Assembly: GCA_008632985.1 (NCBI GenBank)
Contig: QPGO01000005.1
Location: 641,607-705,606 of the forward strand
Reading direction: 5' to 3'
Origin: Psammoneis japonica
Lineage: Eukaryota
DNA: 64,000 nucleotides
Shown: positions 1 to 53,112 of the stretch, in pieces
How the letters are laid out: the number at the start of each line of letters is the position of its first letter
Numbering within the stretch: the first letter of the stretch is position 1
The notes under the pieces: generated by a model
Databases searched by the model: none
What the model was told of the DNA's origin: nothing
What the model saw: the letters and a program-made list of their open reading frames with translations, nothing else
Translations under genes and position numbers: made by a program

Positions 1-31
1 AGAGTTTTACAACCAGCTCCAACTGGTGCTG

Positions 32-814
32 TCAATCCTTCACCAGTTGGCACTTTAGAAGAATGACAAGGAATCTGCGATGCAGCAAACCCTTTCCAGG
101 TGCATTGCAGCCATGAACACCGGGGGCCCAAAATTTGTCCTCCTTGATTGCGGTCTGAAGTCGGCCCCACCATGCCCCAAAACCCATGGAGCATCCCAGG
201 CGAAAGTGCTTGTCTAAAACATTGAAATGCTTGGCACAGAGATGTTCATGATTGGCCTCAGTGTCCTCAGAACGAAGCCTCTTGACGTGGTCAGGCAGAC
301 AGTGTGTTCCATGCATGTTGGCAAAAACCTTGCCAGGGACCTTCTGGCCAGATCCAAACACCGCCTTGAAGGCAAAAACAGCAGCCAAATTTTCAGCAAA
401 ACTTTTGTGAGCAGCCTTGGGGTTGCTGCGCGCCATGCCTTCCCCAACAGTGGGTGGAACCTTCAGATCCATGGCTTCCTTGTGGCAAGCAATGAGGTGC
501 TGCAACAGCTCCTTTTTGCCCTGAGGCAAGGGAATGATGCCAGGTTCCACAGCAGAAGCACAAGCAGGTGCAGCCTGGCATGCAGCCTTGCGCCTCTTGG
601 GCTTGCTCTGGCCCTTGGCAGCCTTGCTGCTTGCCCTTGCCATGGGCTCCAGCGGTGCTGGCACCAGCGCCGTCACCGCCAACAGCTGTGGAGGCACCAC
701 CAGGAGGAGGAGCTTGAGCAACACGTCTCCCAGCACTGGCAATCTCAGCAGTCCTCTGCATCGATGCCAAAGCAGCAGAACATCGCCCCGGTGGGGGCGG
801 AGATGGGTCTGCAA
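32..814 (-). pseudogene. degenerate protein-coding relic, unknown family
   Basis: 260-codon Tyr-free ORF whose C-terminal half reads like a globular protein. It lies inside the TpA- and CpG-poor DNA and has no recognisable motif. Confidence 0.3.
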
Positions 815-851
815 CCAAAGGAAGAAAGAATCTCAGGTGAGTGAAATCCTT

Positions 852-1025
852 CAGCTGAGAAAAAATTTAACAAAAGGCTCAGCTGAACACTCAGCTGAGC
901 CGATGAGGGATCATTGTGCTCAGCTGAGCAGGTGGGCTGAGCTGGAGAATGGGGCTCAGCTGAGCAAAAACCAACACCAAAAACCACCAGCAGTGTGTCG
1001 TGCACGTGCAGCAGTGCAGCTGAGA
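852..1025. repeat. cluster of CAGCTGAG / GCTCAGCTGAGC palindromic repeats
   Basis: Perfect 12-bp palindrome GCTCAGCTGAGC at 918-929 and 955-966, with partial copies near 852, 877, 889 and 1017. Confidence 0.8.
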
Positions 1026-1514
1026 AGCAAAGACAAAACAACAAACCTCCTGTTTCCAAAGAGGAAGGAAGCCACGGTTCATGGCAACAACTCACCTCCA
1101 CTGTCTTTGAGATTTGCTCATCCAGTTGGGTGGGGCATGTTGACAGCAGTCGTTGTGGGTCGTCCGAGTGCGATGCGATGCGGTGTTTGCGTTTGGTCGG
1201 TTGTGTCTTTGTGTGTGTGTGGAGGAGGAGGAGGAGGAGCGAGCAAGCGATTCAAGTGAGTGAATGGTCAGAACTTTGGGGTTCGCTCTGGTGTTCGCGG
1301 ATGTCAGAATTCAAGTGATGCGCTCGGGCAATGTCACGCGCCGGAGCTCGCGGTCCGCATGTGGAGCGCACGGTTGTTTTTTCCGTGCTGCTGACGTGCA
1401 GTGCCGTGCACCATGGGATTGCATGCAGTGTCAGCCCGGGGTCAGCCGGGGGTCAGCGCGGTCAGCGCGGGGGGGGAGTGCAGTGCTGCATGAGTGCTGC
1501 ATGAATGTGCCAGT

Positions 1515-1750
1515 TTTTTTTCGATTTTTTTCTTCAGTTTCGTTTCTTTGGAGCTGCACACAATGTTTTTTGTTCGTCAACAAAATTACAATGTTTGAAT
1601 GTTTGGTTTTTCCGAAATGTTCACACGTTCATGTGTGTTTGAACAACCAGTTGTTTCGATTTTTTGTGCATTCATGGATGTTTGAATGTTTGGTTTTTTC
1701 GATTTTTTACCGCTCAAATTCCATTTTTCGATTTTTTCCAATTTTTTCAC
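1515..1750 (+). repeat. T-rich direct repeats, possibly subterminal repeats of a DNA transposon
   Basis: atgtttgaatgtttggttttt occurs at 1591 and 1678, and tttcgattttt recurs about four times. Confidence 0.6.
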
Positions 1751-2208
1751 GCGCCACCGCACTCAGGACACATGACACCCGCACGACATCAACAAAAAAC
1801 AAAAAACAAAAGGAGAGATGAACATCACAGGCTCAGTTGAGTCTGTGTGAACATGGAGTGTCAGATCGACATCGCCACACACAATGGCAAAAGGCCGAAA
1901 GCGAGTTGATCAAAACATGGGACACTTTTCTCGTTTCACAGTAAACCGCATGGCATGGAATGATCCCATGAACATGCGACACGTTCCTTTTCAACAACAA
2001 CAAGAACGAGAGCATTGCTGTCCATGAGAGTTGTGAATTCCTGTGGTTGGGAGACCTTTCAGACCATTTTTGAAATTCGCAAGGGTGGTGTCGTCAAGGC
2101 GTTCGATCGGATTGATGATGCAAGTAGAATCAGCACATTGGCTGTCAGAAACATTTTGAACCAGAGCTGCATGGAGTGGAGTTTGATGACTGGATGCAGG
2201 GTGAGGCC

Positions 2209-2235
2209 AGAGAGAGAGAGAGAGAGAGAGAGAGA
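2209..2235 (+). repeat. (AG)n microsatellite
   Basis: About 13 consecutive AG units. Confidence 0.95.
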
Positions 2236-2399
2236 AAACGCAGCGTGTGTCGTCTCATTCTCTTCCCTTGAATTCCACACGGCAAATCTTTTCTTTGTTT
2301 TGAAGAGGCTCAAGGTTTTTGTGTTGGTTGTCGTTTGACGAGTGACGATGAAACGAAACCACAAGTGTGGAAAATGACAACCCGAGCCGGATCATCAGG

Positions 2400-5045
2400 A
2401 CGAGGTGGTGTGTCAAGGTGCGGGACCCAGAATGGCACCAGGCACGTTGATTTTGGCAGTGACAATTGAGTCTGACACTCATGCCTTCCGCTCTGTTTGT
2501 GTTGACCGTGCAAGATGCAACTCCATTCGATGCCAGTGGCGGTTTGTGTCAGGTTGTGATTGGGCCAAACGTGATGACACTTCTTCGACTTTGCTTCAAG
2601 TTGCGACTCCTTGCACATTGGATGCATCCCAAGCCAAGGAGCAACGTCCGCCCATTCTCAAAGCACTGGCACATGTCATTGGACTGCTCTTCTTGGAACA
2701 AAAGCAAGTTGATGACCAGGAGAAACTCGCACCATCCAGTGGTTGGGGAGGACTGGGCAGATCAATGGTCTCTGTCGATTTTCACAATTCTCCTTGTTGT
2801 TTGCTCTCTTGTCATTTCTCCCTGAACTAGACAATGCGCCGTTCTGCTGTGAGGTTGCTGCGAGAGCAAGGCAACATGACCCGATGGACAGCGATCAAGT
2901 TTGGAATGCCAAGACGACGTGCCAGCAGCGGCTTGGTCAAGTCCATTGCCACAATGGTGGGAATCGTGCTGGACGATTGTGCATCCACCCTTGTTCACTC
3001 TGGCGCTCGACATGCTCTTTTCTGTCCTCTGATCTCTGTCAGTCGAGTGATCAAATCCATCAACAGCAAGCCATCATCCAAACCTAAACAGGAATTCGGG
3101 CTGAAGCCTGTGCTGCTGGCACTGGGGCGATCCAGCTGATGTTGGGGCCCTGCTGCTCTCGATCTGAAGCGAATTGCACCTGGTGGGGCCTCTCTCTAGA
3201 GTCCTCTCTAGTGGAGTGGAGCAGAGAGCACAGAGGGCTCTGTGAGTTGGAGCACCGAGAGTTTTCGGAGGACGGCACCAGGAACAAATTGATTGAATGA
3301 AATGGTGTTTGTCTTGTGTCGTGTGTTGTGCACACTGTTGCACAGTTCATTTCTCACACAATCATCAAAAGCAGCTCCCCTTTGTTGATTTCAGCTTTTA
3401 AAAATGACGCTTGAAGGTGTTGCAGATCAAAACGCGAGTGCTTGGACTGTGTCATGCGTGACGTGGATGAGAACTGGATTCCAGCGACTGACACTCCATT
3501 GGAACCACCATTGACCGAGAAGGGTGTTGGACAGGAACGTTTGTTGGGAGAAAAAGTGAGGTGACTCTTGTCCGAGCGCGCTCTTTTTGCTCTTTCAGCT
3601 TTTCACTCCTTGCTCTTTTCTCAATGCAAGAAAGCAGCGCAAGATGCACTCGGGGGTCGAAAACCCAATGCACATCAACAGACAAGATTGGAAGAGGGTC
3701 CACCAGAAAGCATTGATGAGAGTTGGTGCCGTTCATGGTGCCTGCTGAATCTGATGGCACTTGTGGGTTCCGCAACAAGCCAAGGCGCGAAGTCAACGAT
3801 AAGATTGATTGAGCAAGGTCCACAGCAAAGCCAAGATGCCTGTGCGGTCGCCACTGGCAAACTGTGGCAAAGCCAACAATGAGGATGCTGCAATTGACAA
3901 TGAGTGCCCTTCATTGCATCAAATTGGCAAAGCCAATCAGTGGGGAAACTTTGAGTCTCGGTTCAGAACAACGAGAGAGAATGCTCTTTGTGGTCCAGAC
4001 ACTTGCAAAGAATCACCACAGGGGCAATGCCATGCTGCTGGTCTTGCATGGTGGATCAGCGACTCATCTTTGTGAGTTTGTCACCAGCCACAAATGGCCC
4101 CTGCTGGCGAGAGCACTTGTTGCTGTAGTGTTTGCGTGCAGGGTGCAGGTCAAGGGTGGAGACTGGGAACAAATCGTTGTCAATGAGTCGATTTCATCCA
4201 CTTCTGAAAACCATGCAGGCTGGCGACACACACCGCATTGCACGACGCTGTCAGGCGCCATTGGATGCCAAGGCATGTCTCTTGCTTGAGGACAATCTCC
4301 TGAATGATCGCAAAGCAACGGCTGCCAAATTTTCAAGATGCTCAAGGAGAAACAACCCAACGATGCTTTGGCCGAAGGCAAGGATGACGCAGACAAACTC
4401 ATCGCGGTGCAGCCTGACGACTTGGTGCACTGCTTTTGTCAGTTGGAGATGATTCATGTGCCACTGGTTTGCTCAGTTCCGAACTCAATCATGTGCACCA
4501 TCTCAGTGGATTTGCAGACAATGTCTGTGCAGAGGCCTTTGTCGTGGGCCATGATCATGACATTGTGTTGGAGATTCTGGTCGTTTGTCATGCTCCCAAC
4601 CCATGAGCCACCTTGATGATGATGCTTGCCACCATGTGTGACATGCAAGACTGCCAAACACCCGCAGTCTCAAAATGTTTGCCCTCTCACTCAGATCACC
4701 GTCAACGCCTCCATCACAAGGTCTCCTCCACCGAGACGGGGCAAATCTTTGGCGCCATTGTCTGTGAAGACACGGCGACACGAGAGAAGGGCTGCATCAA
4801 TCTCAATGCAATCAACATGAACATGATGGACAGCACTCGTCTCACAACTTGTGCCGACGAGTTTGTTCGACCCATGTGTGTCCAGTTTGAAAGTGGCCAT
4901 TTCAACCTCGATTCCCATCTTGTTGGATTTTTTAAAATGACATTGTGGAGTCGACCAACATGTGTCGCCTCACTCCGCAAGAGACATCGGAAATGGGAGA
5001 CTTCCTTGCCGCCAACTCCTGCACAAGAAGGTGGTGAAACATGAG
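2400..5045 (+). pseudogene. fragmented degenerate gene(s), unknown function
   Basis: Protein-like stretches in shifting frames (e.g. LKEKQPNDALAEGKDDADKLIAVQPDDLVH; TGQIFGAIVCEDTATREKG), interrupted by TGA stops and lacking Tyr. Confidence 0.3.
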
Positions 5046-6530
5046 ACGGTGCTTGTTCTCGATGCACTTGTTGATTGTTTCCTGATTTTGTGTTGGATTT
5101 GTGCAAAAAGACTTTTCATGAGTGGCATCTGTTGACACCGGGAGAAAGAAAGTTTCGCAAAACTGTTGGTGCAGACAAGGTGCCTTGTGAGGTGTTCAGC
5201 ACACTGTTGCAAGCACGACAGCGTTCTCGTGTGGGATCAGTCCTTTGCGCGTGCGCTTTTAGCGCATTGGTGCATGAGTTGTCCTTGCGCGTGCTTTTAG
5301 CACATTGGTGCATGATGTGCATTTGCTGACAGAGTTTCGCAGTCTTGAAGATTCATCTGACTCAAGCATGCTTTTGTTGTTTTTGTGGTGTCATTGCCCC
5401 TCGTTCATGTTTCTGTCGATTTGTGTTTCGGTCAAGAAGAAGGACGATGACAAGGGCAAGTTGGCTGGGAACATGTGGATTCGTTCCAAGAGATGAGGTG
5501 TTGCTCTGAGTTTGGGCGACAGCGAGATCCACACCCGAAGCCAAGCAGTGAAACAAACGATTGGGACAGTGAACACAGAGCATGATCTGAACTAAATGTG
5601 TCACTTCTTTAGCATGAAACTGCGTGAAAATGGCTCTGCTGCCATGCCCATTGATCCCACTCTCTGGGCTTCTCTGCCCTCGATTTGGTTTCCCATGCTG
5701 GCACCACTGGGGTTGATCGCGTCCTTGACACCAACTGGGGACTCGTCGTGTGAGGGAAAAAACATGAGGCTTGGCATTCTGTGGATCAAGCATCTGGCAA
5801 TTGACAGGGTTGGTGATGATGATTGCATGGGGAACCATTTGAACTAGAACATTCAAAAGCTGCATGAATGACACAGTTCTGCACATTTGTTCTAGACGCC
5901 GTGGAATGGTTTCGTTCATTTGCTGCCACAGGGAGGAGCCGCTGTCCTTTCCAATGTGCAAACAAAGCCAAACCGTGACGCCAATGCTTGCCTTGTTGTT
6001 TCCATTCTTCCACAATTCATTCTCCGCATCCAAAATGAGCAAGGGTTTGGTTCATTGACTGCCGCAGGTCTTGAGCAAATGCAGAGTCGTCGTTTCGCAT
6101 TGAAGAACCAACCATGCCTGGTGCACATTTTGTTTTGGAAAACACAAGTTGCGGGGCGGGACCCACTGTCACTTGAACCTTGGTGCTTCAACAAAGACTG
6201 ACTGCCATGCATCGTTTCAAGTCGGGTGGTCGAACCGGGGCACAAAGGGTGCATTTCTGTGTTGACAAAATGAAGAGAAAAAGCAACGTCAGTGAGCAGG
6301 TCTCGAACGAAAAGAAAAACAGACACGAAATTGACTTACGCTGGGGGTGCATTCAAATGTAACATGGCACAATGAACGCACCCCATGGCATTGTAAATTG
6401 CACGACAAACTCGTGCAATGTCAAAGAGTCTTTGATGTGCACAAAAGCTGCGTTGCACCATGAAATGGAATCGAGAGATGCCCCCATGCATGCTCGATTT
6501 CCAAAGGTGCAAAACAAGCAGTCAATGAGT

Positions 6531-7670
6531 CTAGCGGCGACTCATGATCCCAGCAGATCTACGCACGACACTCCCAGCATTGGATGACAGAAAGATGCTG
6601 CCAGCAGCTTGACAGAGCCCAGGCGAGCATCTCAACGGGACAGTGTGGGCTTGCTTTTCTTTGTTTCTCACAAGTGTGGCATCGGGAACAACATCCTCCT
6701 CTGCTGCTGGATTGTTGTTGGCAGCCACATCCTGGACGTCGAAAGTGTCGTCAGGCTCCTCGGCTGCAACTCCAAGAACGACTCCCTCGTCATCATGTGC
6801 AGCAATCGCAGGATCGTCCATGGTGTCATCTGCAGCAGGTTCCTCAACGTCAGCAATGGGAATGCCCACCTCCGCATCGACTGGAGCATTGTCAACAGCC
6901 ACAGCAGGCTCGTTCAAGGCATCATCAGCATCAGGAACTGCTTGCTCCACCACAACAGGATTGTTGTCCACAGCTTCAGCCGGTTCAATCGCCGCTTGAG
7001 TCCGCACCCATCCATGCCAGTGATCATGTGGTGGGTGCGATTGACACTCATGAATGCATTGGCTCTGTTTCCGTTCAAACTCAAGCAGAGCTGCAGTCAA
7101 CCTCTGACCATCCAACAAAGGCATCACACGAGTGCATCAAGGGGTCTGAAGTGTTCGTCGAGCAGTCACGCTGGTTGGGACTGGAGGGGCGTCACCACGG
7201 CAAACGTCTTGAAGCATCATTTGGTCCGGTCTCCATCTGATCCGACCGCAGCCAAATGGTTTGCGCTTCAAAAGCAGCAGCCATGGGAACACAAACCGCA
7301 AGGGGACACACATGGCATGGCACATGGTCCACACAATCAATGCAACAGCGAGAGCAGCCACAACAGCATCGCACGCTCGATCCCAAAGAAGAGTGGCAAG
7401 GTCATCGATTTCCACAATCCGGCAGTGCAAGAAACAGACCTTGTCACCAATCAACTTCAACGAGGAGTGTGTGAATGTCCCAGTGTGCAAGGCGAGGAGA
7501 ACTTGCCAGATCGCAACGACAAAGGACACGAGAGCGTGAATCGTGCAGAGAATTTTGTCCCACGCTTCCGAAAGGAAACTGCCAACGATTCGGCCATGGT
7601 TCTGCTTGCTGTGAAATGAGCACAGCACGAGATTGACAAATTGAATGAGCAGTGCAATGCATGCAATCAC
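6531..7670 (-). pseudogene. degenerate membrane protein with acidic Ala/Asp/Val-rich tail
   Basis: Hydrophobic ORF 7137-7670 is followed in another frame by acidic low-complexity ORF 6531-7127 (PAEAVDNNPVVVEQAVPDADDA...). Both are Tyr-free. Confidence 0.35.
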
Positions 7671-9323
7671 AATGGGGGTGGCAGTGTCAACAAAGATGGA
7701 TTGGTGTCAGAGTGTTTCAATGCAAGCAAAACTTGAAACTGTGTGGTGAGCTGTGGTGAGCGTGACGGTCGCCCGTTGTTGCGGTTGGCCCATTCGTGTA
7801 TGCACAGAAAATGCACTGGAAGAGCCCGCAGAAAATCCGACACAGTCCCTCACGATTTTCGATTTCGCGTGATGTGGGCACATTTGCACTCGGTTAGTTG
7901 CAGGCTTCTTGGCAGGAACAATCAGAGACCGAGACTGACGATGGATTTATTCACAATGAACATTGTCCATTTTAGAGCCATTTCTCGCTTCCAGCATCCG
8001 CAGCGCATTCCTGGCACACTTTGGCATGTCAAGCAGACCATCCACTTGGGGGCTCAGACTCAAAAGCTTGCACCATCCACTTGCATCCTCAGCATCACAT
8101 GTTCGCAGATCAGAGAAGTGTGCCTGCATTGTTTTTTGCATCACTCACCAATTCAGTCCTTCTCATCTCTTGACCAAGTCCAGTGTGACGCGAACCGTGT
8201 CCAAGCCACCAAATGGTGCTTCACTTTTTTCAAAAGGCTTTGGGATCGGCAGCCAGCTGGGAAGGGGAAAAACCATCGAATGAGCGGTTGCTTCAATTTT
8301 GAACACTTCCGCGCCAACAGCAGTGGATTGCGTCACCATTCCAGCACACGCCTTTTAAGGAAACAAGTGCTGCAACAGCTGTGGGACTGAAGAAAATAAA
8401 AGGCGCTCTGCGTGATCAAAGCAATGATGGCTGATGTCCCCATGCACATTGGGAACCCGTCGTGCGCACGCAAGTCGCAACGGAGGCATCTCAATCACCC
8501 CACGTGTCCAAGGATCAATGATGGGGATGCGCCACCAGAAACAGGATGCATTGCACATGACTTGCCCATCCGCCTGAGCAAACGATCCAGGTCTGGGCAG
8601 GTCTGGGCATCATTGCGTCTTTCGTCAACTCTCTCCTTGGCATTTGCTGGCAAAGTGCGTAGAAACGGGTGATGCAAATGAGACTCGCTGCCAATTTTGC
8701 ACCGATGGCAGTCGGAGAGGAAAACCTGAGCGGGCCACAATCATGCAGAACCTGTGGCTCACCACACTGACACTGTGCTTGCACTCCGTCCCACAAGCTG
8801 TGAGGACAACAGAGTCAGGAACACTGGTCAAGGTGGCCCCTTCTTGTGCCCAGAAACAATCAAGCATTTCGCTCTTTCAGTCAACGAGACTGCCTTTCTT
8901 GGTGCTGTCCTCGAATTTGAAGATCCCCCTCAGGCAGAAGGAAGACCTCTCGTGTGACTCAGCCAGTCGACCCTTGAAATGAAGCTTCAGTGTGCACAAC
9001 GCCAACATTGAATGACCACGACAGAAGTGGAATGTGCAAAGGAAGCATTCACCTGCAATCCGGGATTAATCTTCAAAATGCTCCAAACTCGTTTCCAACT
9101 TGTGGAGATCTTCCATGAAGGAGTGATTCGGCTGGACACAACTCCGGCCTTTCTTGGCCAGCACCAATGCATCATTGCGGCTCAGTGTGAACTTTTGCAT
9201 CAAGTGCGCAAACACAATGGCCCCAGATCACAAAACGCCCTTGCTGCAGTGCACCAACACAGGTTTGCCACTGCAAATGTTCCTCGCATTTTGGTGCAAC
9301 AGTGCTGGGTGCCGCCTCTTCAA

Positions 9324-11409
9324 TCATCCGAACGCGGAAGACTCTGTTTGTTTCAAAAAGGTCAGGTTGTTGAGAAGACATGTCCCCACCCAGAAACAAG
9401 CCGCATCATTGGAAAGAGTTGATGTCTTGATGGTGCTGTTAAACACATTTTCTTCTTCTTGAAGAATTTTGGGTTCCTCCTCCAACGAAGCTGCAAGCTG
9501 CCAAGCATCATTTCCCAACATCAAATTTCCATCAAATGTCATCGTTGAAAGCTGTTCTTGAGTCATCAGTTTGTCCCAGATGACACCAGCTTGTGTCGGC
9601 GGCACTGCCTCAAAATTTCCCTGCCACACCTCACCTTGCATGCCGCCGGCAACTCCTCCTAGAAAAGAGCAGTGACTTCAAATGAGATGCGGCAGCTTGG
9701 TCAAAAGGAGAAATGTGTGCGTCACAGAGAAACATGCTTGCCTTCGGCTTTTGGAAAAATTGAGAATCCGTTCACAGCCACAAAGTCTGTCTTTTTTGCA
9801 GCACCACTGAGAACAGCTTTTGCTGCATCTTGTGGGAGGCATTTGAACATTCCGTCATCTTCTCCTGCTGGCGAGCCGATCTTGGCATCGCGCAGTTTTT
9901 TGCTGTCATGCAACCATGCAAAAGGCTTTTCAGGCTCACCTTCAAATCCACATTTTCCGCCGCATCGTTGTGTTGTGGATGTTTTTTTGTTGTCTTTTAA
10001 CTCCAGATCAATGGTTTGAGTTGAAGGATGGTTTGGCAGCACACCAACAGACATGGCTTCGTCGTCTTGCATGAGAAGCACAGTTGACTTGTGAAACTCT
10101 TGGTTGTCCAACAAGAAGGGTGACCGTGCCAACGAAGAACATCGCAGCAGCGTTCCTGCGCAAATCTTGCTTGTCCCGTTCATTGACTCTGTGGCACGTT
10201 TGATCAACAAATCAACAGAGTCAAGCTGTGTGTCGCCGTCGCCACCAAGCGTTGACGCGACAATTTTTTCAAGCTCGTCTTCTTTTGTCTCTGAGTTTTC
10301 ATCATTGTCAAAGAAAAGCATTTCTCTAGCCCATTCTCGTGGCATGAGATCTTCAAAGTCATTCTCAGACGTGGCCGCCTTTGTCTCCTCCTTACGATCA
10401 ATCACCGTCATGAGTGCATTCCAAGTTTCGATTCCCGCTTCATGTGGATCTCGGCTCTCTTGACCTTGCTTGGCAAGCTGTTGCAGCAGAGTTTTTGAGT
10501 CTGCTGCCACCACACACCAGGACTTTTGTTCCAATTCATCCAAAAGTTGCCCAGCATTCCAACCACTGCATCTGCAGAACACCCAAAAGTCGGTTGAAAC
10601 TGCGTCACCATCATCAACCAGCTTTCGAGCCCCTTCAAAAGATGTCCACTGCCGGTCATTCAAAAAGAAAAATCACACACAACCATTTCAGAAGTGCCAC
10701 AGAGATGAGAAAGAGCAAGAGATTAAACAAACCTTGACTCCATTCAGCACCGTCCTCGAAACCTCTTCGGCTGCATCACTTGTCAAAGAATGCAGGCAAA
10801 CAATCTCTCGGGATTTTCTGATGACAAACCTTTTGTGCCCCCACCAAACCAAACATGCCACTTGTTTTCCTTGTCCACATCATCCAATGGAGAACCATCC
10901 TGGTGGATAAAATCATCATCAGATGGCACCAGATTTGTGGGGCGATTCAGTGTCACGCCCCTCGCAAACATGTTTTCGTCATGCTCCAACACCAAAATTG
11001 CACACCCATGAAAGTGTTGTTGCTGCAATCCATTGCAGAAGTCTTGCTGCGGTTGACTTAGAACAATTGAACCTTCTTTGACAGCATCGCCACTCTCACA
11101 GGCCCACGACGCACCAAGTTTGCTCGAAGAAAGAGTGTTGCCATCCGAGGCATTTTTGCCGAGCTTGCCATTTCCTGTCACCAACTGCGCATGAAATTGC
11201 CTCCAGCCCTTGTCTTCGATGTCGATCAAGTCATCTTCATCATCTTTGTCTGGATCCTCAGAACTCATTTTGAGGATCCGGCCATGTTTTGTTGGGTTCT
11301 GCACATTTCGTGAAGTTCCGCTGCGAGAGCGATGCTTTGGCTGCAGAAAGGATTGAACTTTGGCCAGCGACAATGCGACAAAACAGAGCTGGATAAATGT
11401 GAAGTGCAT
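9324..11409 (-). pseudogene. DUF179/UPF0301 (AlgH-like) two-domain plastid-targeted protein, pseudogenised
   Basis: Signal peptide MHFTFIQLCFVALSLAKVQSF. Degenerate AlgH motifs: FHGCAILVLEH, RGVTLNRPT, VWFGG, FCRCSGWNAGQLLDELEQKSW, and a second domain FHKSTVLL...GVLPNHP. Introns 10649-10732 and 9659-9741 restore the frame. A 2-nt AG duplication at ~10806 causes a frameshift. No Tyr codons. Confidence 0.85.
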
Positions 11410-11580
11410 TCGACGTGAAGACTTTGTCATTGGAGATCTCTTGCCTCTCCAATCTCCATTTGCTTTGCTCTTCATGACGGTGTGTCGTGTCATCGTTGTT
11501 GTCCGCTCCCGCTGAAGTTCTGACGGCTGACGAGCCAGTCCACCGCGCGACTCGCGCGCAGCGAGGAGGAATGAGAGACC

Positions 11581-11590
11581 ATGACGTCAT
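11581..11590. promoter_or_regulatory. CRE-like palindrome ATGACGTCAT in a divergent promoter
   Basis: Perfect palindrome between the divergent DUF179 pseudogene and CDF gene. TGACGTCA also occurs at 15342-15349 and 36205-36212. It matches the bZIP/aureochrome-type core TGACGT. Confidence 0.5.
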
Positions 11591-11715
11591 TTAACGCTAT
11601 TTATGCGTGTATATCTAATATAACAGTGCACGCATCTGACACGCGCCCTCCACGCACGTCTCGAAAGCTCATCCGCATTTATTCGCTCACTTTTTCAACT
11701 TGAACAACGCAAAAA

Positions 11716-12920
11716 ATGCCATTTCGAGAAAACATGGGTGCTTCTAAACATGGCGAGGATTTTGCAAAAGAGCAGGAACCGTCGATCACCGTAGCGGGAA
11801 GAGAAATAGCTGAGGATGGAGGCCATCGGAAACCCACTAATGAGTATGTGCTCAACGTAGCCTTCGTCTCGTTCCTCGGTTTCACAGTCGTTCAAACAAT
11901 CTTTGCGCTGAGAGCAAAGAGTGAGGTGAGTGAGCAATTTCATCCAGCGTTTCGTTGCCTTTTACTCGTGTATATTGCTCACTCGTTGTTTTCTCCACGT
12001 TTTTCTCAAAGGCAATGCTAGCGGACTCGGAGGCGATGTTTGTTGATGCGCTTACCTATCTCTTTAATCTTTGGGCAGAAAGACTCAAAAATAGACCTTA
12101 CACTGCTGAAGAAGTAGCATTATCTCACAATGAGCGTCACCGACGGCGGAAGTTAAAAAGACTGTACTTGGAACTTATTCCTCCATTTATCAGTGTCTCT
12201 ACCCTTGTTGTTGTAACAGTTCAAGCTCTACAAGAAGCATTTGGAACTTTGCTGGGTACAAGTAATGTTGATGACAACGCGTCTCCTGATTTGAACGTCA
12301 TGCTGTTCTTTTCAGGCTTGAATCTGCTTCTGGATATTGTCAATGTGACGTGCTTTGCCAAAGCAGATCAGGCTGTTGGGCTCCCAATAAACTATGAAGA
12401 CATGCAGCTGTTGCATCACGGAATAACACAAGCCGATAAATCTTCGATCAGACGCGAAGAAGGTATGAAAGTTTCAGCAAAGAACTCCGTTCCATCATAC
12501 CAGGCCATTGATGATACTTCAGACCGCGTCCAAGATGACGAGGGTACTTCACTGGTAACAGACACGTTCCAAGCATCCGGTGAACACGCCTCAGACAGTG
12601 ATAGTCTCAGTTCTGACGGTGACTTTATGGGCGTCGTCAATTTGAACATGAATATGTGCTCGGCCTGGACGCATGTTTGCGCCGATACTCTTCGAAGCAT
12701 TGCGGTATTGATAGCCGCAGCTGTTGCCGTCGTCGTTCAAGGGGTATCGGCGGCAGCTGCAGATGCTGTTGCGGCAATCATTGTCTCCTTTATCATTATT
12801 TCTAGCCTCACACCCCTGATTCAGGGGCTTTTCCTTACCGCCTTTGAAATCATAAAGATGGAAAGAGAAGACCGTTTGCACCGACCATCCTCCCATTTGG
12901 GATTGACAATATCTGTCTAA
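11716..12920 (+). CDS. cation diffusion facilitator (cation efflux) transporter, paralog 1
   Basis: Intron 11926-12011 (GT..AG). CDF TM2 motif AMLADSEAMFVDALTY and TM5 motif AWTHVCADTLRSIAV. About six hydrophobic segments. Confidence 0.85.
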
Positions 12921-13136
12921 AAAGCGCAACGGTGTTCGTTGTCTGGTTTTGGGTTTGAATTATAGGCGAGGATTTCAGTTGACGACGAGAGATGAGAAAG
13001 GTGGGGCGGAGCATTAAAAGGTAGCGATGCAATTTCAAGTACGAATAGACTACAGTATGGATAAGATGGCGACTACTAGAAGGTTCTTTCTGAAACTCGA
13101 AGACCGTTGTTTGAACCCGTACTTCTCTAGCGATAC

Positions 13137-15160
13137 TCACACGTTCACGTTCACAATGGGTTCGTACATCGCCCTTCGCCCACGATGGCGAAACCACGTT
13201 AGTAGCAAGAAAAGGGAAGTGATAGCGCCAACAAGAATCGTACCACTGACAACGTCATCATGGGAACTGTTCTCGGAAGTAAGAAGCGTCGGTAGGAACC
13301 TTTGCTTCTTCTGCTTCTTTGCGTAAAGCCACGGAAGGGTGTTGATTTCGTACAGCATGGAACCCAATGCCCATCCTACTTTGAGCCCCCCAATTACATC
13401 GAGAGCGGTAACATATTCCTTGTCTTCAAAGCCGTATCCATTTCGGAGAAGCTGGTAGATGTAGACTGCACGGAAGCAATAATCAAGTACATCATCGTCA
13501 GCAGAGAGCCTGCCGTCGTTGAACTTCATGAATTCCTTTTCATTCATGGAACAAATAGTTTTAGCTTGGTTCTTCAACTCGTCCATGTTAGCACGCGTCG
13601 GAAGCTCCAGAAAGTCCCAAATATGCACAAAATTTGAGAATGCTACAAACTCTCCAAAGTGCTCTGACTGGAATGGGAGGTCTGGTTGATAAATGCCCGC
13701 AAACGAGCAATCACCCCCGTGAGAAAAGTTACACCAATCGTTTTTCTCCAAATGCAAGAGCTCGTGAGTCACCGCCATGCATGCATCAAAGTCGCCGGTT
13801 GCCCCGTCGTTTTTAAGCAGCACCTTGTAGTACCCGTCGTCAGTGCTGTTGACAGCCCGGTGATCCAACGTTTCAATGCCATTGGAATTCAGAACAATGT
13901 TTGTACGGATTGTCTTGCTTGATCCGCCAGGAAGACAAGGATTGTGCACCCCGTCAATCGCACGTTCAGTGGAATTCTTTCCATTCGCAAGACGAGCTTC
14001 CAGTCGACGGGTAGCTTCCACTATCCCGTAGTACAGGAATGAATGGCAATAGACATTCCAATGCCTACCCGGACCAATTTGAAGCTTGAAAAGGTTGGCC
14101 ATGATATCGCCATCGGGTTCGTAGAAACTGATCTGAGTGCTGCACCACCCAAAAGAACAAGCGAAAAGTTAGCCCTGGCCGTGAAGCGTGTCTTCTGCAT
14201 TTTTTTTTACGATTCGTACCTTGCACCACCCAAATCAAGCGCCCCGTATGTAAGGCGAGGATTCAACACAGTTCCTGCTCCCTCACTGTCTCGAATCAAC
14301 GTTCCCATCAAAAAGTTGACGCCGGTCCAATCATAAATGGCTGATGAAGACAAACATAGTACCTGGTGAGAAACAATTTTCGTGGTGACACACTCGAAAT
14401 CGGCCAACACGCCCCTCTTACCCTCTTCTTCTCCAGAGATTACACGGGCACGTTCTTCCTCGAACCAAAAGGGACAATAGGTTTTGTTGTAGAACAACTG
14501 ACGAACCACATTCATGACGCGTGCACGATTAGTCGGGGTCAATATCCTCATTCCACCGGTAGCCTTGAGGAAGATTGGAAATGTGTTGAACTGATCCTTC
14601 TTGATTTCCAATACCTCCTTAGCAAAGTCCATAAGGGGAAGCATATAATGTGCAACGACCGGAAGCAACTGCTCGTCGGGTGTATCTGCAAAGGCTGAGA
14701 GACCAGGTTTCAAACGATCTGTCCAGCGGGAGTCTGAGGTTGGAAATGTCAGCAAACGGCCTGACAATGCGTCTTCCACAGCATGTTTCTCAGACAACGT
14801 TCGGCGATCAAACTCGTATACGTGGATACGAGTCCCTGTGCTTCCCGCATCGATCTGTCAGGATAGCGAAACGAATGAGCGAGCAAAAAAGTTAGTCCTG
14901 GTCGTGAAGCGCGTCTTCTGCATGTATTTTTTAACGATTCGTACCATCATTCCGTGAACTGTTTCTTCTCTGATCCCAGAGTCAAAATACTTGTGTTTAT
15001 GCTTCTTGTGCTTGCGGCGCCTGTGAAGCTTTCGCACCGCAATGGTGCTACCGTTCTTCTGGTCGACAACGTCGTCAGCCAAATCGTCTCCATCGCGACC
15101 ATTCGTTCGCTCGACAAAGAGACTCCACGAATCTTCTGCTTCAATTGGATGCTTCCTCAT
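13137..15160 (-). CDS. GDA1/CD39 family nucleoside phosphatase (apyrase/NTPDase) with C-terminal TM helix
   Basis: Apyrase conserved regions IDAGSTGTRI, ATGGMR, ISGEEE/AIYDWTGVN, GALDLGGA/STQ and GWALG, joined across three introns. The true start may lie in an upstream exon. Confidence 0.92.
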
Positions 15161-15310
15161 ATTACGTTCTAGCTTTGCTCCTTTGTTATGAAACTAAAGC
15201 AAGAATGCTGTACTAACATAACATCCGCAAAGTGAGTGTCGCTGATGTTTTCGTGTCAAAAAAGTGAGACGCAAGAAAAAGATCCACACGCACGCGAACT
15301 CGAGAAACGT

Positions 15311-15378
15311 TCGCGCGCCAAAATTTTGCGCACGGAACACCTGACGTCATCTTGAATCTTCCGAAAAATGGCGGGAAA
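15311..15378. promoter_or_regulatory. E2F-like sites flanking a CRE-like site in the apyrase/CDF divergent promoter
   Basis: Reverse-strand TTTTGGCGCGCG (15312-15323) and TTTCCCGCC (15370-15378) match E2F consensus TTTSSCGC. TGACGTCA lies between them. Confidence 0.4.
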
Positions 15379-15563
15379 CAATAATTTATGCCAACACCAA
15401 GCCAATACCAAGCCAACACCGGATGTTTCCGGCCGCTTCGAAGTGCATACAAGTGTAATGAGGACGGTCTGACACCCAGATCGGCACATCCTTTACATTT
15501 TGTTTCCTCTGTGGGGTCGAATGATCATAAAAAGCATCGGGATTCTATTGGAAAATAATCATA

Positions 15564-16747
15564 ATGTCGGCAGATGATTCGACAGAACGCGGCGAGAGAA
15601 AAGATTCCTCAGCTCGCAACGAATCTGTTCGAGATTCGTATTCAATCTTTACCTTTGACGAGGAGAATGAGCGCCCATCCAACGAATATGTTCTCAATGT
15701 GGCCTTCTTTTCCTTTCTAGGCTTTATGATTGTTCAATCCTTCTTTGCCTTGATTGCCAAAAGTCAATCGATGCTAGCTGATTCTTTGGCAATGGGTGTT
15801 GACGCCATGACTTATCTATTGAATATGCTAGCCGAACGAGTTAAGAATCGACCCTACAGCGAGAAGGAAAAGCAATTACCAAGCGCAGTGCGAAAGAGGA
15901 ACCGAAGTTTAATAAGATGCTACATGGAACTGACTGCGCCTCTGGTCAGTGTCGTCACGTTGATTCTCGTAACAATATCGGTAATACAAGAGGCGATGAC
16001 AACTCTTAACCATGATGAAATACGCGTTGAAAGTCCAAACAGTGATGACGAGCCAAGCGTTGGAATTATGCTATTCTTTTCGGGATTAAATTTGTTGTTG
16101 GATGTAGTGAATGTGACTTGCTTTGCACGAGCGCGCAGTTTGTCTGAGATACATCCAAAGGATTTTCTGTCCATAAGAGTAGGACAATCTAGTCGGGACA
16201 TCAAGATAAAGGCTTCCAGTACAGTACATGAGAGTTCATTGTTGCTAAGCGGCAACGGTGGGACTTCTTCAAGCTTGTCGCGCCAATCTAGCAACAACGT
16301 TGAAATGTCAAATATTGAGGAGGCTTCCTACCAGAAAGAAAGATCTAGAATAGTCGATGTGGACTCGGACTACGACGAAGAGGGTGAGATGAATGAGCCA
16401 ATCAATATGAACATGTGCTCTGCATTGACTGTACGTGAATACTTGTTTGCATGGACTAGTTATTCGATTTCCATGTCATTCGTAACCAACCACGCATTCT
16501 GTTCTGATTTTCTATCTCTCGTTATCACTTGTAGCATGTGTGTGCGGACACAATGCGTAGTATCGCAGTGTTGGTCGCAGCTGGGATTGCATACTTGTTC
16601 GAGGCAGTAGATCCAGGCGATGCCGACGCAGTTGCCGCTTTGCTTGTTTCCGTTATCATCCTTGTTAGTTTAGTTCCACTGCTACAGGGACTGTTCGCAA
16701 CGGCATCAGAAATTTTGACGCTGTGGAGAGAAAAACCTGCACTGTAA
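15564..16747 (+). CDS. cation diffusion facilitator transporter, paralog 2
   Basis: Shares NEYVLNVAF, MLADS.AM.VDA.TY, LFFSGLNLLLD.VNVTCFA and HVCADT.RSIAV with paralog 1. Intron 16431-16534. Confidence 0.85.
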
Positions 16748-16933
16748 CTTTGTTAAAGTCGAAATATGGAATGGGTTGGGTGTTGTAGCATAGGCGGAGT
16801 GAGGCTCTCAACAAAGCAACAAGGAACACTGGTGTTGAGACTTGAGAATGCCTCACAGTAGTATTCGATTCAGCTCAACAGCTCGCTCAAGCAGAAACTG
16901 ATACCTGATTGAATTGACCACGTCTTAAAAAAA

Positions 16934-17030
16934 CTCTAGGGCTACATAGCTACTCTAGCTAGCTACTAGCTAGGCTACATAGCTACTAGCTAGCTACAAG
17001 TAGCTACTAGCTACTAGCTAGTAGAGAGGG
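16934..17030. repeat. TAG/CTA-rich low-complexity intergenic island
   Basis: ctctagggctacatagctactctagctagctactagctagg... built from CTAG/CTAC/GTAG units. Confidence 0.8.
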
Positions 17031-17249
17031 ATGTCTACCTACTGCTCTGAATTTGGGGCACTTATTATCTTGTCACGTCGACGATGTGCGAAAAATTCAA
17101 TCAATGCATAGCGACAGCACAGCCGCCGCGCCCGGCCGAGGCGCCGACTCGTCCCGTCTGTCAATCACTCCGCGTCGGTGGCGGCAATGGCCGTTCTCAA
17201 TTCGGAGACAGCGGCATGCCTTTTTGCCACTTGCCACCCCATTTTTATT

Positions 17250-18780
17250 ATGAGCCAAGGATCTCATAAAGGTAAAATGGCACAAGGATCATATACGCCT
17301 CTTCGTTATTGTGTTGGAAGCAGACGGCTACTTCCGGTTGCATTCTGGTGCTTTGCAGCGCTCATCTCGCTAATGAGCAGCGTGAGTTCTGAGCCGTCAT
17401 CTTATGACGAACCGGCTGAGTTAGAGCACATACTTTCAGAGACCATTCCACCGCCAGCTTGTTCGATTGACTGCAAATGTCCCCATATTGAGCTTGATGG
17501 GTCAGAAAGAGAAGATTTGAAACATGCTGGAGCCAGGCTGTTGTATCTCATTACGATTCATAACAACAGAACAGCTGAAGATGCCGCGTACTTGTTTCGT
17601 GCAATTCGTTCTCCTCAGAACATTGTACTGGTCCACGTTGATAAAAAGTTTGACTGGAACGAATATCTTAACACGACGCTACACCTAGAAATGGAAGCGT
17701 GCCCCTGTGGCACAAAGGTCCATGTTGAGTCTGTCTATAGCGCAAAGTGGAGCTCCTGGAGCATGAATGACCCAACGTTCTGGGGAATGGAAACGGCGTT
17801 GACCTTGTTCCGCGGTGAATGGGACGTCTTTCTTAATTTGAGTGGAGACACTCTGCCTGTATACACAACACAAATTATGGCTGAGCTGTTCGATCAAGAC
17901 CACGGTCCCCTCAGAGGTGTTAACTTTGTAACATCGAGCGCCTGCGAGACCGGCCTCCTTCCCTCAAGCGTGTACATATTTCCACCTTTTTGGCACAAAC
18001 GCAGTCACTACACGACAAAACCAGATGGCGACCCAGTATTCAATATGTTGACGACGACGGGAAGGAGAAGGAGATGACACTTGAAATCCACTTTGGAAGC
18101 CAATGGATGGCGCTACAGCCAGATTTCGTCGACTACATCATTTCATCGCTGAAGAGACCAGATAGCCTTGCCAGTGGTTTCAAGTCCTATCTCATTGAGA
18201 CGAAACGTAAAATGGCGGACGAGACATTTATTCCAACTCTTTTAGTGCACGTTTATCCTTTCAATGAGACATTGCCCGACGTGGCGAAAGACGGCACATT
18301 CAAGTCGTACCCTTCCATGCGGTCCATCCGGTATGTGTGCTTCCCGAGCTTTTCCTTTGTTGTTGTCGCTCTTGAAAAGCAAATACTAATGCAGCGCACT
18401 ATTTTGTTGTTTGTCACACCAGATTTGAGCGAATGGACGAGCACGTACCAACGGCGTTTGGATACTTTCCGGTGAATCAAAGATACGACGTGCCAAAGTC
18501 GTCTGACGCGAGTAAACCAAGAGTGTGGGGTCCATATTTCTTGGGCGTCTATGATCTTGCGGCCATCAAACAAAGTGGCGCTCTCTTTGTTCGTAAAGTC
18601 AGCGTAGCTGTGGATCCAAACATTGTCTACATGTTACCAGTTTCAGATATCGACCAGTTGCCGTCCATACAATGGCCCGACGAGGTCGAAGTTATTGAGA
18701 AACCAAACTGGGAAAAACTAAAGAAGGAATTGATGGAAAAAGCCACGGAAAAGGAGCACCATGACAAATTGAAGAAATAG
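17250..18780 (+). CDS. GT14 (core-2/I-branching GlcNAc-transferase / xylosyltransferase family) glycosyltransferase
   Basis: LLYLITIH, LVHVDKK, WDVFLNLSGDTLP, FGSQWMAL, ADETFIPT and ALFVRKV motifs with an N-terminal anchor. Intron 18331-18422. Apparent 1-nt frameshift at ~18040. Confidence 0.85.
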
Positions 18781-18849
18781 ATGAGGGGTCAACTCATTCA
18801 AGCTCTTCAAAAGCTTGAATGGGAACCAGCTTTCTACTCCATTGATCTC

Positions 18850-21687
18850 TCATTCGTCAAACTCATACTCTTCGTCGGAACTACTGTCGAAGACACTTTC
18901 TTCGTTCTCACGGGAGGCAGGCTTCATATCATTGTGACTTTCTTGTTCCGTGTCCACGTCATCGTATGCATCCGTGACGACGTGGACAAAGGCCAACGTG
19001 TCGGCTTGTTGGTCGGCAACCGCCAGAAGTGCGTCGTCCTGACAGTTTTGTTTGGTAGCAAGTCCCTCGGCTCCGCTGTAGTCTGGCCACTGCTTGCCGA
19101 CTTTGCGTTTGGTGTCGCAGTCGCAGCCCTCTTTTAGCGTGAAGCAATCGCGAAGTTCTTCCTTGGTGAATCCTTTGGCAGGAGCAGACGCCTTTTGAGT
19201 GTTGCCACCGTCTACTGTAAGATTAGCAAGATTTCCCTTTTGACACTGACGTTGGTAAATCACCTCTTCGACTGTTCCAGAGAGAAAGAAACGATACACA
19301 AAGCACGGTTTTGTTTGCCCTTGTCTGTAGATTCTTGCCATGGCTTGCATATCGGTTGCTGGATTCCAATCAGCATCGATCATGACCAACCGATTGGCAC
19401 CAATCAAATTCAAACCGCAACCTCCAGCTTTTGAACTCAATAGGAATAGGAAGCTCTGTTCAGGTGTCGCGCGGTTGAACGAATCCACCAGGCTTTGACG
19501 ATCGGACTGGTCCGTCGACCCATCCAAACGTTGAAAGCTCCAGTTGTTGTTGGAAATGAGCGAGTCTTCAATAACGGAAAGGACTGAAGTAAAGTTGGAA
19601 ACAATCACCACCTTATCGGTAGGACAGCTTGTACGAATGCTTTTCAAGAGACTCTCGAGTACCACTAGTTTCCCTGAAAGGCTAGCGTGGTTTGTATTGC
19701 TACCCGACTGCTTATCCATAACGAGGGAAGGATGAGAGCAGAGTTTCCGCAAGTTGGTCAACACCGTCAAGGCTTCTGCCGATGCGCCGGTGACAGTAGT
19801 GTTGTAAGTCATGCTCTTGTAAAGGCTCGACTGCATTTGAGAAGGACGGCAAAAGAGAAGAAATTCACTCCTTGGTGGCAGCAGTGACTTGAGAATGTCT
19901 TTCTGAAGTCGTCGAAGCATAAAGGTCTTGGTAATTCGTTCGAGTTCTCGAGATTGCATCTGCCCCTTGTTTCGCTGCTCCCAAGTTGCATTCTTGTTGT
20001 TGGAAGCCGCAATGGGTCGTTCGTATACTGAGGTGGTTGTAACATGCGATAGCAGAAATATGAGAGGTTAGCGACGACTACTGATGTTGAAAGAGGTTGG
20101 TTCGGTTCAATTTCACTCACCTCGTCGAAATGACGGCAGATCCCCAAGGATTCCCGGACAAACAAAGTTGGCAACATTGTAAAACTCGGAGAGGTTGTTT
20201 TGAATGGGTGTTCCTGTGATGAGAAGCCTTGCGTCACAATCAAGCGCCTCCAAGGCGGATAGAGTGAGCGACCCGGACGTGTTTTTGAGTCGATGGCCCT
20301 CGTCGACAACCAAGAGCCCAATCTGCTTGGCGTGGGTCAGCAAAGACGAGTGCATTCTGAACAGATCGTAGGAAACAATCAATACTAATAAATAGAAAAG
20401 AAGGGTGAGAATATCATCATGGGCGAATTCATGTATAGAGTACAATCGTCTTACCTTCTGATTGGTGTGGTTTGACGGGGACAAAAGCCCGGAGAGCGGC
20501 AAGACCTACTTCTCCGCCCTTTCGAATAACCACACGCTTTGGTTGACTGGCACGTCCAAGCCATTTGTCAAACTCCTTTCCCCAATTCGATACTAAGGAC
20601 GAGGGACACACCACAATGAATCTCTGTTTACGATTGTAGAAAGGAAATGTTAGTCACATGGACGCATGCGCTTAGGCTGAACGCAAAGAGAAGATATTAT
20701 ACTCACATGATCTTTGCGTTTTCGATGCAAGGCGAAAATCGTGGATATCGTCATCAGCGTCTTGCCTAATCCCATTTCATCGGCAAGAATACATCCCTTT
20801 AGAGCACTTGGTGACGACGCTGTTGCTCCCGTGAGACAATTCCACAAGAATCCAATCCCCAGTCGTTGATGAGGACGCAAAATTGCACGCACCGAGGCTG
20901 GAACCACAACATTACCAATCGCTCCTCCAAGTTCGTCATTGGAAGATCTCTGGCTGTGCTCTGGCGTATTGCGCTTTATTGATGGTGTCACCTTGACGAG
21001 CTTTCTTTTTTTGGCGTGCTGCAAGAGAGGATTGATCTTGGGTTTACTCGTAGTAGCTACAGCCGGAGTGGATGATGGTTCTTCTCCGTCTGGGTGATTC
21101 TCCTTATCGGTGTTGCGTTGCGTAGGCTGACGTGGTGGAACTCGTCGGGCTTGCCACGATGGCATTGCTTTCAATGTTTTGTTATTGATATTGATGGGAA
21201 CCGTCTTGACTTTGGATACAGTTTGAACTGCTCCTCGTGATATGAGTGGTTGCTTTCTTTTCAGAGGCGGAATCGGCTTTGCATTTAGAGCTACCGGACG
21301 GGTCGTTTTCCGTTGAGATGACAAGACACTCACAATCTGACATTCGACTGTTGGTAAAACAACAACGTCGTCTGCACTCAATCCTGGACCGTCTGTTCCA
21401 AAGACTCCTTTCGAAATGCTCTTGTTGATGCCGCGCCAAACAACGTTGTTACTCGATTTTGACGCCTTTTTGCGGTTCCACTTTTTCTTGCCCTTGGCTT
21501 CCTCTTCGTCTTCATCACTTGATTCAGAGTCATTATTTTCATTTCGTAGCGTTACCATACCCGACGGTTCCACCGTGAGAATTCCATCCACAGTACTGAC
21601 ACCGCGTGACTTGTGTACCTTGTTTGTGCGTTTGTAGTACAACACCGAGTACGTCGCAGGCTCCACATCATCACTGTTGTTATTCAT
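18850..21687 (-). CDS. RAD54: RAD54/RAD54B-like SNF2 family DNA translocase
   Basis: GCILADEMGLGKT, VCPSSLVSNW, VDEGHRLKN, TGTPIQNNLSE, RLDGS and LLSSKAGGCGLNLIGANRLVMIDADWNPATDMQAMARIYRQGQ. Three introns between ~19990 and 20710. Confidence 0.92.
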
Positions 21688-29700: not shown

Positions 29701-30010
29701 AAGTCATTTCTCTGTTGCAAGTTGTTTCGGTGGGGCGCTGTCTTCTGGCAATGCCCATCTCAGCTGGTCATTGTTCTCTCCTGTCTAACTTGACTGTGTG
29801 CTGGGGAGTGTGGGTTGGCCGACGTCAGCATGGCCGGCAAAGAAGGAGTGACAGCACTTTAAAAACAGGTCTGTTTTTTTCTTTGCTGTTGTTGAGGTTC
29901 CTGAAGCGCCTCTTGTTGAGGCCAGCCCTCCTGAAGATTTTTCTGCTGGCAAAGTTGTGATGTGGGTGAAGAGATGCTCTTCACGGAGGAGAGTGTTCTC
30001 GCTCCTTTTG
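23780..30010. other. TpA- and CpG-depleted hypermutated domain 2 (unrecognisable relic, probably a repeat or TE)
   Basis: Only roughly 15-20 TA dinucleotides seen by eye in ~6 kb, and CG is also rare. Saturated with TG/CA. Dozens of overlapping Cys/His/Gln-rich ORFs nearly free of Tyr. Confidence 0.9.
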
Positions 30011-53054: not shown

Positions 53055-53112
53055 GCTCTCTCTCTAGTAGAGAGTAGAGCTCTCTCTAGAGCTAGAGTAG
53101 TGCCGGTAGCAG
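53055..53112. repeat. TAG-rich island at the left edge of domain 3
   Basis: ctctctctagtagagagtagagctctctctagagctagagtagtgccggtagc. Confidence 0.75.

Follow-up and report, generated by a model that had tools for sequence, protein, structure and literature searches.

How does a gene in the nuclear DNA of a diatom come to encode more than 600 residues without a single tyrosine? The question is raised by a 64,000-nucleotide (nt) stretch of the Psammoneis japonica genome (GenBank assembly GCA_008632985.1, contig QPGO01000005.1, positions 641,607–705,606 of the forward strand), here called the window and numbered from its first letter. A first-pass annotation, made from the sequence alone, had singled out a DUF179/AlgH gene at 9324–11409 on the minus strand, and had read its lack of Tyr and its altered conserved residues as the record of mutation at the dinucleotide TpA (TA) in a native host gene. 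Our analysis indicates that this interval is probably a defunct duplicate of a diatom's nuclear AlgH gene, lying in an 11.6-kb patchwork that was hypermutated at TpA by a process of the type described in the chlorarachniophyte Bigelowiella natans (Mettrop et al., 10.64898/2026.01.13.699255).

The absence of Tyr is not peculiar to the AlgH frame, because TA itself is nearly gone from the surrounding DNA. Four blocks of the window are almost devoid of it: block 1 (1–11580, multi-copy, its left end cut by the start of the window; TA observed/expected 0.03–0.09, CG partly lowered), block 2 (24000–30000; TA 0.01–0.06, CG 0.02–0.20) and, delimited by dinucleotide composition, block 3 (53100–55250) and block 4 (63250–64000, its right end cut by the end of the window). 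Measured in whole 1-kb bins, TA observed/expected is 0.01–0.09 inside the blocks and 0.39–1.06 outside them, a depletion of about 10-fold. Intermediate values occur only in bins that straddle a border, and the borders are sharp, within about 100 nt; that on the right of block 1 falls at about 11570–11590. Nearly all open reading frames (ORFs) of at least 120 residues, in any frame of the blocks, contain 0 or 1 Tyr. While TA and CG fall, TG and CA climb to as much as 1.5–2.0 of expectation, and the sum of the pyrimidine–purine steps stays constant (0.2398 outside the blocks; 0.2419, 0.2386, 0.2279 and 0.2493 within them). The combined loss of TA and CG is matched by the combined gain of TG and CA both in block 1 (0.052 versus 0.054) and in block 2 (0.085 versus 0.084). 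A constant step sum with balanced loss and gain is the pattern expected from transitions limited to TA and CG. In block 2 CpG is almost wholly gone besides TpA, and given this near-complete loss the block may be older than block 1.

The AlgH interval was identified by Pfam DUF179, a gene model and homolog alignment, and runs on the minus strand from an ATG at 11409 to a stop at 9326–9324, with coding pieces at 11409–10807, 10804–10733, 10648–9742 and 9658–9327. Its conceptual product has 638 codons, none of them Tyr, and no stops when 2 nt (10806–10805) are skipped, in agreement with the roughly 640 Tyr-free codons originally reported; the gene sequence as a whole contains 7 TA. Exon 2 matches DUF179 (PF02622) over profile positions 90–143 (51.7 bits, cutoff 27, E 1.3e-13), and exon 1 matches profile positions 2–60 at 19.5 bits, under the cutoff of 27. 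Between the 'DWR.FRA' box and the C-terminal 'W..T.LL' box the architecture is that of homologs of 573–710 residues, end to end (P0005, P0006 and P0007), and four further homologs (P0001–P0004) align over parts only. The conceptual protein has a hydrophobic N-terminus, where a plastid-type presequence had been proposed. Spliceosomal introns had been claimed, and two are present: intron 1 (10649–10732, 84 nt) has GT..AG ends, and intron 2 (9659–9741, 83 nt) opens with GCAAGC and closes with CTAG, the homolog alignment running unbroken through both junctions. We infer that the 5′ splice site of intron 2 derives from GTAAGC by a TA>CA change. Both lengths agree with the 80–90-nt introns of neighbouring genes, as seen in a spliced-looking sequencing run of the same sample, X2.

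What the first-pass annotation overlooked is a frameshift. A 2-nt insertion in a short TC/GA run (10805–10806, minus strand) separates '...ENPE' from 'IVCLHS...', and the uncorrected frame terminates after '...ERLFACIL'. Comparison of the frames shows that without the 2 nt the product matches the homologs (P0006 reads '..PEIVCLHS'), and the 2 nt are absent at 10804 in two contigs of a second run, X1 (depth 158 of 356). A working member of the family would have an intact frame; here the frame is shifted, and the protein departs from the consensus in 52 of 199 columns, among them all 4 in which the consensus is Tyr. The interval is a frameshifted extra copy, a pseudogene and no working host gene. 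Run X2 has no contig over 9339–11339 and was not used for or against expression.

Composition alone cannot give the direction of change, and it is here that the pseudogenes of block 1 (AlgH, and pieces of coatomer and phosphatase genes described below) serve as internal records. We aligned the window protein with seven homologs, scored the departures of each sequence against a 70% consensus of the others, and deduced ancestral codons from the protein consensus, not from homolog DNA. Among the 52 departures of the window protein, 10 are replacements predicted by TA loss, compared with 1 of 219 over the seven homologs (Fisher p 3e-7). The ten comprise Y>C (three), Y>H (one), I>T (two), L>P (two), I>M (one) and V>A (one), and each of the four consensus-Tyr columns holds Cys or His. 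At the codon level, TA>TG/CA accounts for 13 departures, and the same A>G or T>C transitions after A, C or G account for 2, 0 and 2, respectively, so that the substitutions are not evenly spread across contexts. Another 7 departures are explained by CG>TG/CA, and the change typical of fungal repeat-induced point mutation (RIP), CA>TA, by none of the 52. Both kinds of product, TG and CA, are present in the coding strand. The Tyr content of the seven homologs is 1.1–2.8%, at which the chance of finding no Tyr in 638 codons is about 1e-6 or less.

The individual sites named by the first-pass annotation were examined against the same homologs, which carry Tyr, Ile or Leu there rather than the Cys, His, Pro or Thr of the window. 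SWC stands where six of six homologs have SWY, and QQHFH where three of three have the Tyr of QQYFH; the Thr (codon ACA) of GVTLNRP replaces an Ile found in three of three (GIILNRP), and the Pro (codon CCA) of GVLPNHP a Leu found in seven of seven (G..LN.P). The reading of RCSGW as a former GY.GW is weaker, with Tyr in two of four homologs and Phe and Asn in the other two.

A second record lies at 4332–5031 (possibly to 5520) on the plus strand, where a coatomer beta fragment with an in-frame stop and no Tyr was recognized by a PDB match (E 3e-7) and by tblastn. The fragment has 114 library matches, with tblastn E values down to 5e-37, and corresponds to about residues 712–895 of about 950, the C-terminal quarter only; the N-terminal 700 residues gave no tblastn match. 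Over 90 consensus columns it shows 44 departures, 5 of them of the TA class, compared with 10 of 657 in 47 homologs (p 1.5e-3). Its scars are of the same kind as those in AlgH (Tyr>Cys/His, Ile>Met/Thr). Together with the copies discussed below, the ortholog consensus of AlgH and coatomer beta fixes the polarity in the window as TpA>TpG/CpA and not the reverse.

A third piece adjoins AlgH itself. The C-terminal half of a dual-specificity phosphatase domain (9066–9323, minus strand; Pfam DSPc, PF00782, profile 72–131 of 133, 50.3 bits, cutoff 33.5, E 2.8e-13 with TGA read as X) begins one codon past the AlgH stop, in the same frame, and is interrupted by a TGA. That TGA occupies what we take to be the Arg position of the active-site pattern HCX5R(S/T), and is compatible with a CGA>TGA change. 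The AlgH, coatomer beta and phosphatase pieces, with their extra copies, make block 1 a multi-copy patchwork of gene pieces.

These contents bear on whether the blocks are mutated host DNA at all or, alternatively, DNA of foreign or viral source in which TA was scarce from the outset. The sharp compositional borders would suit an insertion of that kind, as would the absence of a recognizable protein family from most of the blocks. Yet three genes or fragments in block 1 are of host type, the introns having the length usual for the host, and conserved Tyr, Ile and Leu have been replaced just as TA loss predicts; copies of block 1 also differ, TG versus CA, at a codon for which orthologs have Tyr. 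A proteome without Tyr is not plausible either, and we give an origin as natively TA-poor foreign DNA hardly any credence. Full-length two-domain AlgH homologs occur in marine protist transcriptomes (one from MMETSP), and with the intron lengths these uphold the host origin first proposed.

Whether the gene was mutated where it had always stood is a separate matter, on which the other copies in the same sample are informative. We placed contigs of run X1 on positions 1–20000 of the window at 80% likeness or more; these contigs come from one sample, probably the source of the assembly. Of the 760 contigs placed, 160 are at least 99% alike to the window, 92 are 95–99%, 195 are 90–95% and 313 are below 90%, leaving 600 under 99%. 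Their differences from the window are mostly transitions (A>G 255, T>C 252, C>T 334, G>A 312, with 41–65 in each transversion class). Among the 40 differences listed of 1634, all lie inside 155–11016; in 6 the other copy has TA where the window has TG or CA, in 10 it has CG, and 4 are adjacent TG/CA swaps between copies. One of these swaps is the QQ[Y]FH codon (11015/16; Tyr-132), which reads CAC (His) in the window and TGC (Cys) in two other contigs and is Tyr in orthologs, implying that one ancestral TA was mutated both ways in different copies. At position 4496, where orthologs have Tyr, the window reads CAC but other contigs, including those of run X2, read TAC.

Contigs matching the window exactly have a depth of about 57–64 in block 1, the summed depth over the AlgH gene is 300–350, and the flank of block 1 is single-copy, covered by its own contigs only. 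The most repeated part of block 1 is 6004–8004, where the summed depth reaches about 1370 against about 60 for single-copy sequence, and which run X2 covers well. We found no protein family or terminal repeat in 6004–8004, and the 343-residue ORF of this highest-copy part (6588–7616) had no usable Protein Atlas match.

The picture implicit in the first-pass annotation, a native single AlgH locus mutated in place by spill-over from adjoining repeats, would explain why the copy is full length, why it keeps both introns and about 170 bp upstream, and why the border of the block falls just past it, beside a normal gene. It sits poorly with the other contigs that cover AlgH at 80–99% likeness, two of them without the 2-nt insertion and two with TGC at Tyr-132, with a summed depth several times that of the window's own contigs, and with the half phosphatase domain that abuts the AlgH stop codon. 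We therefore consider a native locus very unlikely. Of the earlier proposal, the direction of the change and the host origin of the DNA are supported; the mutated gene is a frameshifted extra copy in a multi-copy patchwork.

The TA dinucleotides that survive reveal the sequence context of the process. Retention in the blocks, relative to normal DNA, is 17% for TAA and 13% for TAG, falling to 4% for TAC and 2% for TAT. The 66 surviving TA are enriched in TTAA (4.9-fold), CTAG (3.0-fold) and CTAA (2.6-fold), and none of them lies in ATAT or GTAC. The simplest rule that accounts for this pattern is an A>G change in 5′-TAY on either strand; since TG and CA rise about equally, both strands have been hit.

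The same blocks speak to how the loss proceeded. TA retention is uniform, at 6–10% in all four, while CG retention ranges from 13% to 70%. Although only four blocks can be compared, this is suggestive of a TA loss that is fast and saturating and a CpG decay that is gradual, and the CpG loss in block 1 is a second process beside the loss of TpA. A purely passive history, in which TpA in old heterochromatin bore a mutagenic modification, perhaps of its adenine or thymine, and decayed slowly to TG/CA in the manner of methylated CpG, without a dedicated defence enzyme, would be in keeping with the CpG decay in the same blocks, which indicates that they have probably been methylated for long, and with the many unrelated substitutions in both the AlgH and the coatomer beta copies. 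The uniformity of TA retention beside so wide a range of CG retention argues against it, and the lack of any whole 1-kb bin with intermediate TA is more easily reconciled with fast, saturating loss than with clock-like decay; the B. natans process, moreover, comes in bursts and in some lines only (10.64898/2026.01.13.699255). We regard passive decay as unlikely.

The history that we favour for the dead AlgH copy is as follows. The copy lies with the coatomer beta and phosphatase pieces in a multi-copy patchwork, all of which, in coding and noncoding DNA and on both strands, has been brought near saturation by point mutation at two dinucleotides: TpA became TpG or CpA (A:T to G:C) and CpG, more slowly, TpG or CpA. 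The most likely mechanism for the first change would be the deamination of adenine, giving hypoxanthine, in double-stranded DNA at 5′-TA, with a preference for 5′-TAY on either strand, by a putative DNA adenine deaminase that may serve in genome defence. Some targeting signal would direct this activity at silenced or repeated chromatin, and it would end at sharp borders, while the loss of CpG would be the ordinary decay of 5-methylcytosine in the same silenced DNA.

Measured mutation of this kind comes from B. natans. In the mutation-accumulation lines of that preprint, two integrated viral regions received 231 of the 302 new nuclear mutations. With a single exception the mutations in those regions were A>G or T>C changes, and every such change lay at TpA, giving TpG or CpA (10.64898/2026.01.13.699255). 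The main mutated region is single copy, and the genome contains 124 clusters depleted in TpA and enriched in CpA and TpG, as well as a subgroup of 324 coding sequences with a TpA frequency of 0.0018, some with host-type domains; an ADAT2-like deaminase was proposed as the enzyme (10.64898/2026.01.13.699255). The likeness to the window extends from the change itself, TpA>TpG/CpA on both strands, to the sharply clustered depletion of TpA with gain of CpA and TpG, the presence of host-type domains in some affected genes and the absence of annotation from many affected regions. The differences are equally clear. The host here is a diatom (Stramenopiles) and there a chlorarachniophyte (Rhizaria), and block 1 consists of host-type gene pieces present in several copies, whereas mutation in B. 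natans was measured in two inserts, one from a giant virus and single-copy, the other from a virophage. Depletion in the window is near-saturating (TA observed/expected about 0.05), against a Rho of 0.45 reported for the nucleocytoplasmic large DNA virus (NCLDV) region of B. natans, besides the subgroup of coding sequences at 0.0018. A TAY preference and an accompanying CpG loss are seen here, and the main text of the preprint mentions neither CpG nor diatoms (10.64898/2026.01.13.699255).

Other systems reproduce parts of this signature. RIP resembles it in its dense transitions on both strands, kept within repeated DNA by sharp limits, in the destruction of genes and in the independent divergence of copies. 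RIP of ascomycete fungi changes C:G to T:A, mostly CpA to TpA, and so raises TpA, whereas the window has lost TpA and shows no CA>TA departure in AlgH, and a duplicate elsewhere in it is untouched. Fungal RIP was rejected, its polarity and context being opposite to the changes observed. The CpG decay of methylated transposons (see a survey of diatom DNA methyltransferases, PMC9998398) has its counterpart in the CG>TG/CA changes of the blocks, in the 7 CG-only codon changes of AlgH and in the fall of CG to 0.02 in block 2; it covers the CpG part only and cannot remove TpA. Restriction of viruses and retroelements by deaminases of the ADAR/APOBEC type likewise leaves a neighbour-dependent deamination signature on selfish nucleic acids (discussed in 10.64898/2026.01.13.699255). 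Those enzymes act on RNA or single-stranded DNA, in contrast to the double-stranded chromosomal DNA of the window, where introns and flanks are symmetrically altered.

Two further readings place the change outside chromosomal mutation, and both appear to us remote. Modified bases can mislead some sequencers, and the block sequence might on that account be a base-calling artefact at modified DNA; X1 contigs reproduce it, one match being exact along 1155 nt and another having 3 differences in 2029 nt (X1 being possibly the assembly's own source), and the frameshift, in-frame stops and non-TA changes mark real pseudogenes. The other is that double-stranded RNA underwent ADAR-like A-to-I editing and was then reverse-transcribed and reinserted. 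The retention of introns and of the upstream flank, equally depleted, speaks against such a route, as does the equal effect on both strands, even though ADAR enzymes favour a U before the edited A, as noted in the B. natans study (10.64898/2026.01.13.699255).

Pfam searches of all 159 ORFs of at least 70 residues in the blocks outside AlgH gave sub-threshold matches only, except for the coatomer fragment, and 4 long read-through frames of block 2 (of 104 segments over the blocks) gave no family. Neither these ORFs nor the four read-through frames matched a family of viruses or transposons, Transpos_assoc coming closest (E 1e-3, below cutoff). Self-BLAST, plain or with purines and pyrimidines collapsed, revealed no relation among the four blocks, and in the collapsed form no long terminal or inverted repeats of at least 80 nt; a repeat search on 1–12500 yielded short, chance-like families only.

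The genes flanking the blocks are diatom genes. A neighbouring RAD54-like helicase has best named relatives that are all diatoms, at 56–63% identity (Attheya, Skeletonema, Cyclotella, Mayamaea, Thalassiosira and others), which places the window in a diatom without a close named relative in the database searched; a Protein Atlas search with a neighbouring gene yielded no useful taxon. Run X2 skips 80–90-nt stretches with GT..AG or CT..AC ends at 11923–12010, 14139–14220, 14340–14422 and 14854–14945; these lie in cation-efflux and GDA1/CD39 genes and mark introns. Although the run is not labelled as RNA, the skips suggest that it is an RNA data set. Further along, two DUF7467 genes contain a tandem 807-bp duplicate (46607–47413 and 47526–48332) that is 87% identical, its copies differing by 66 transitions and 38 transversions, and keeps 31 and 32 TA. 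Short tandem repeats, their units about 54 and 108 nt long, occupy 45860–46066, at the start of a long ORF adjoining the DUF7467 genes.

Several of our observations weigh against the view that a B. natans-type process hypermutated the AlgH copy, or narrow it. The evidence consists of end products, with no enzyme, base modification or new mutation observed. More than half of the AlgH departures (30 of 52) fall outside TA or CG loss, 13 being other transitions and 17 involving a transversion; the nearest homolog is 53% identical, so ancestral codons come from the protein consensus only and much ordinary divergence is mixed in. The direct comparison of copies is limited to one sample and to the 40 differences listed of 1634. 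At 11005–11008 the plus strand is CCCA in the window and TTTG in two other contigs (TGGG versus CAAA on the coding strand), that is, three consecutive A>G changes in the window of which one, the first, is in a TA context, hinting that the process may sometimes extend beyond TA. The TA-normal 807-bp duplicate indicates that duplication alone is insufficient as a trigger. Finally, the main target in B. natans is single-copy and viral (10.64898/2026.01.13.699255) and nothing viral or transposon-like was found among the ORFs and read-through frames searched in the blocks, so the targeting rule may differ.

Chromosomal A:T>G:C hypermutation limited to TpA has a single prior report, the 2026 preprint on one chlorarachniophyte, and we found no report of TpA-directed mutation in diatoms in the open full-text literature searched. 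With a saturated end product in a diatom, the phenomenon now spans two major lineages, the second of them dominant ecologically and with genetically tractable model species among its members. That duplicated host genes are hit points to repetition or silencing, in place of viral origin, as a possible signal. Tentatively, and with less confidence than we place in the history of the AlgH copy itself, we suggest that diatoms could possess a RIP-like defence of opposite polarity, in which a DNA adenine deaminase acting at TAY would be recruited to repeated or silenced chromatin, foreignness of the sequence not being the cue, and would erase duplicated host genes and mobile elements alike; such a system might be shared with chlorarachniophytes and be old in the Stramenopiles, Alveolata and Rhizaria (SAR). 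The flanking-base preference for TAY is a property that any candidate deaminase must reproduce, and candidate enzymes can be narrowed by what the diatom and chlorarachniophyte lineages share.

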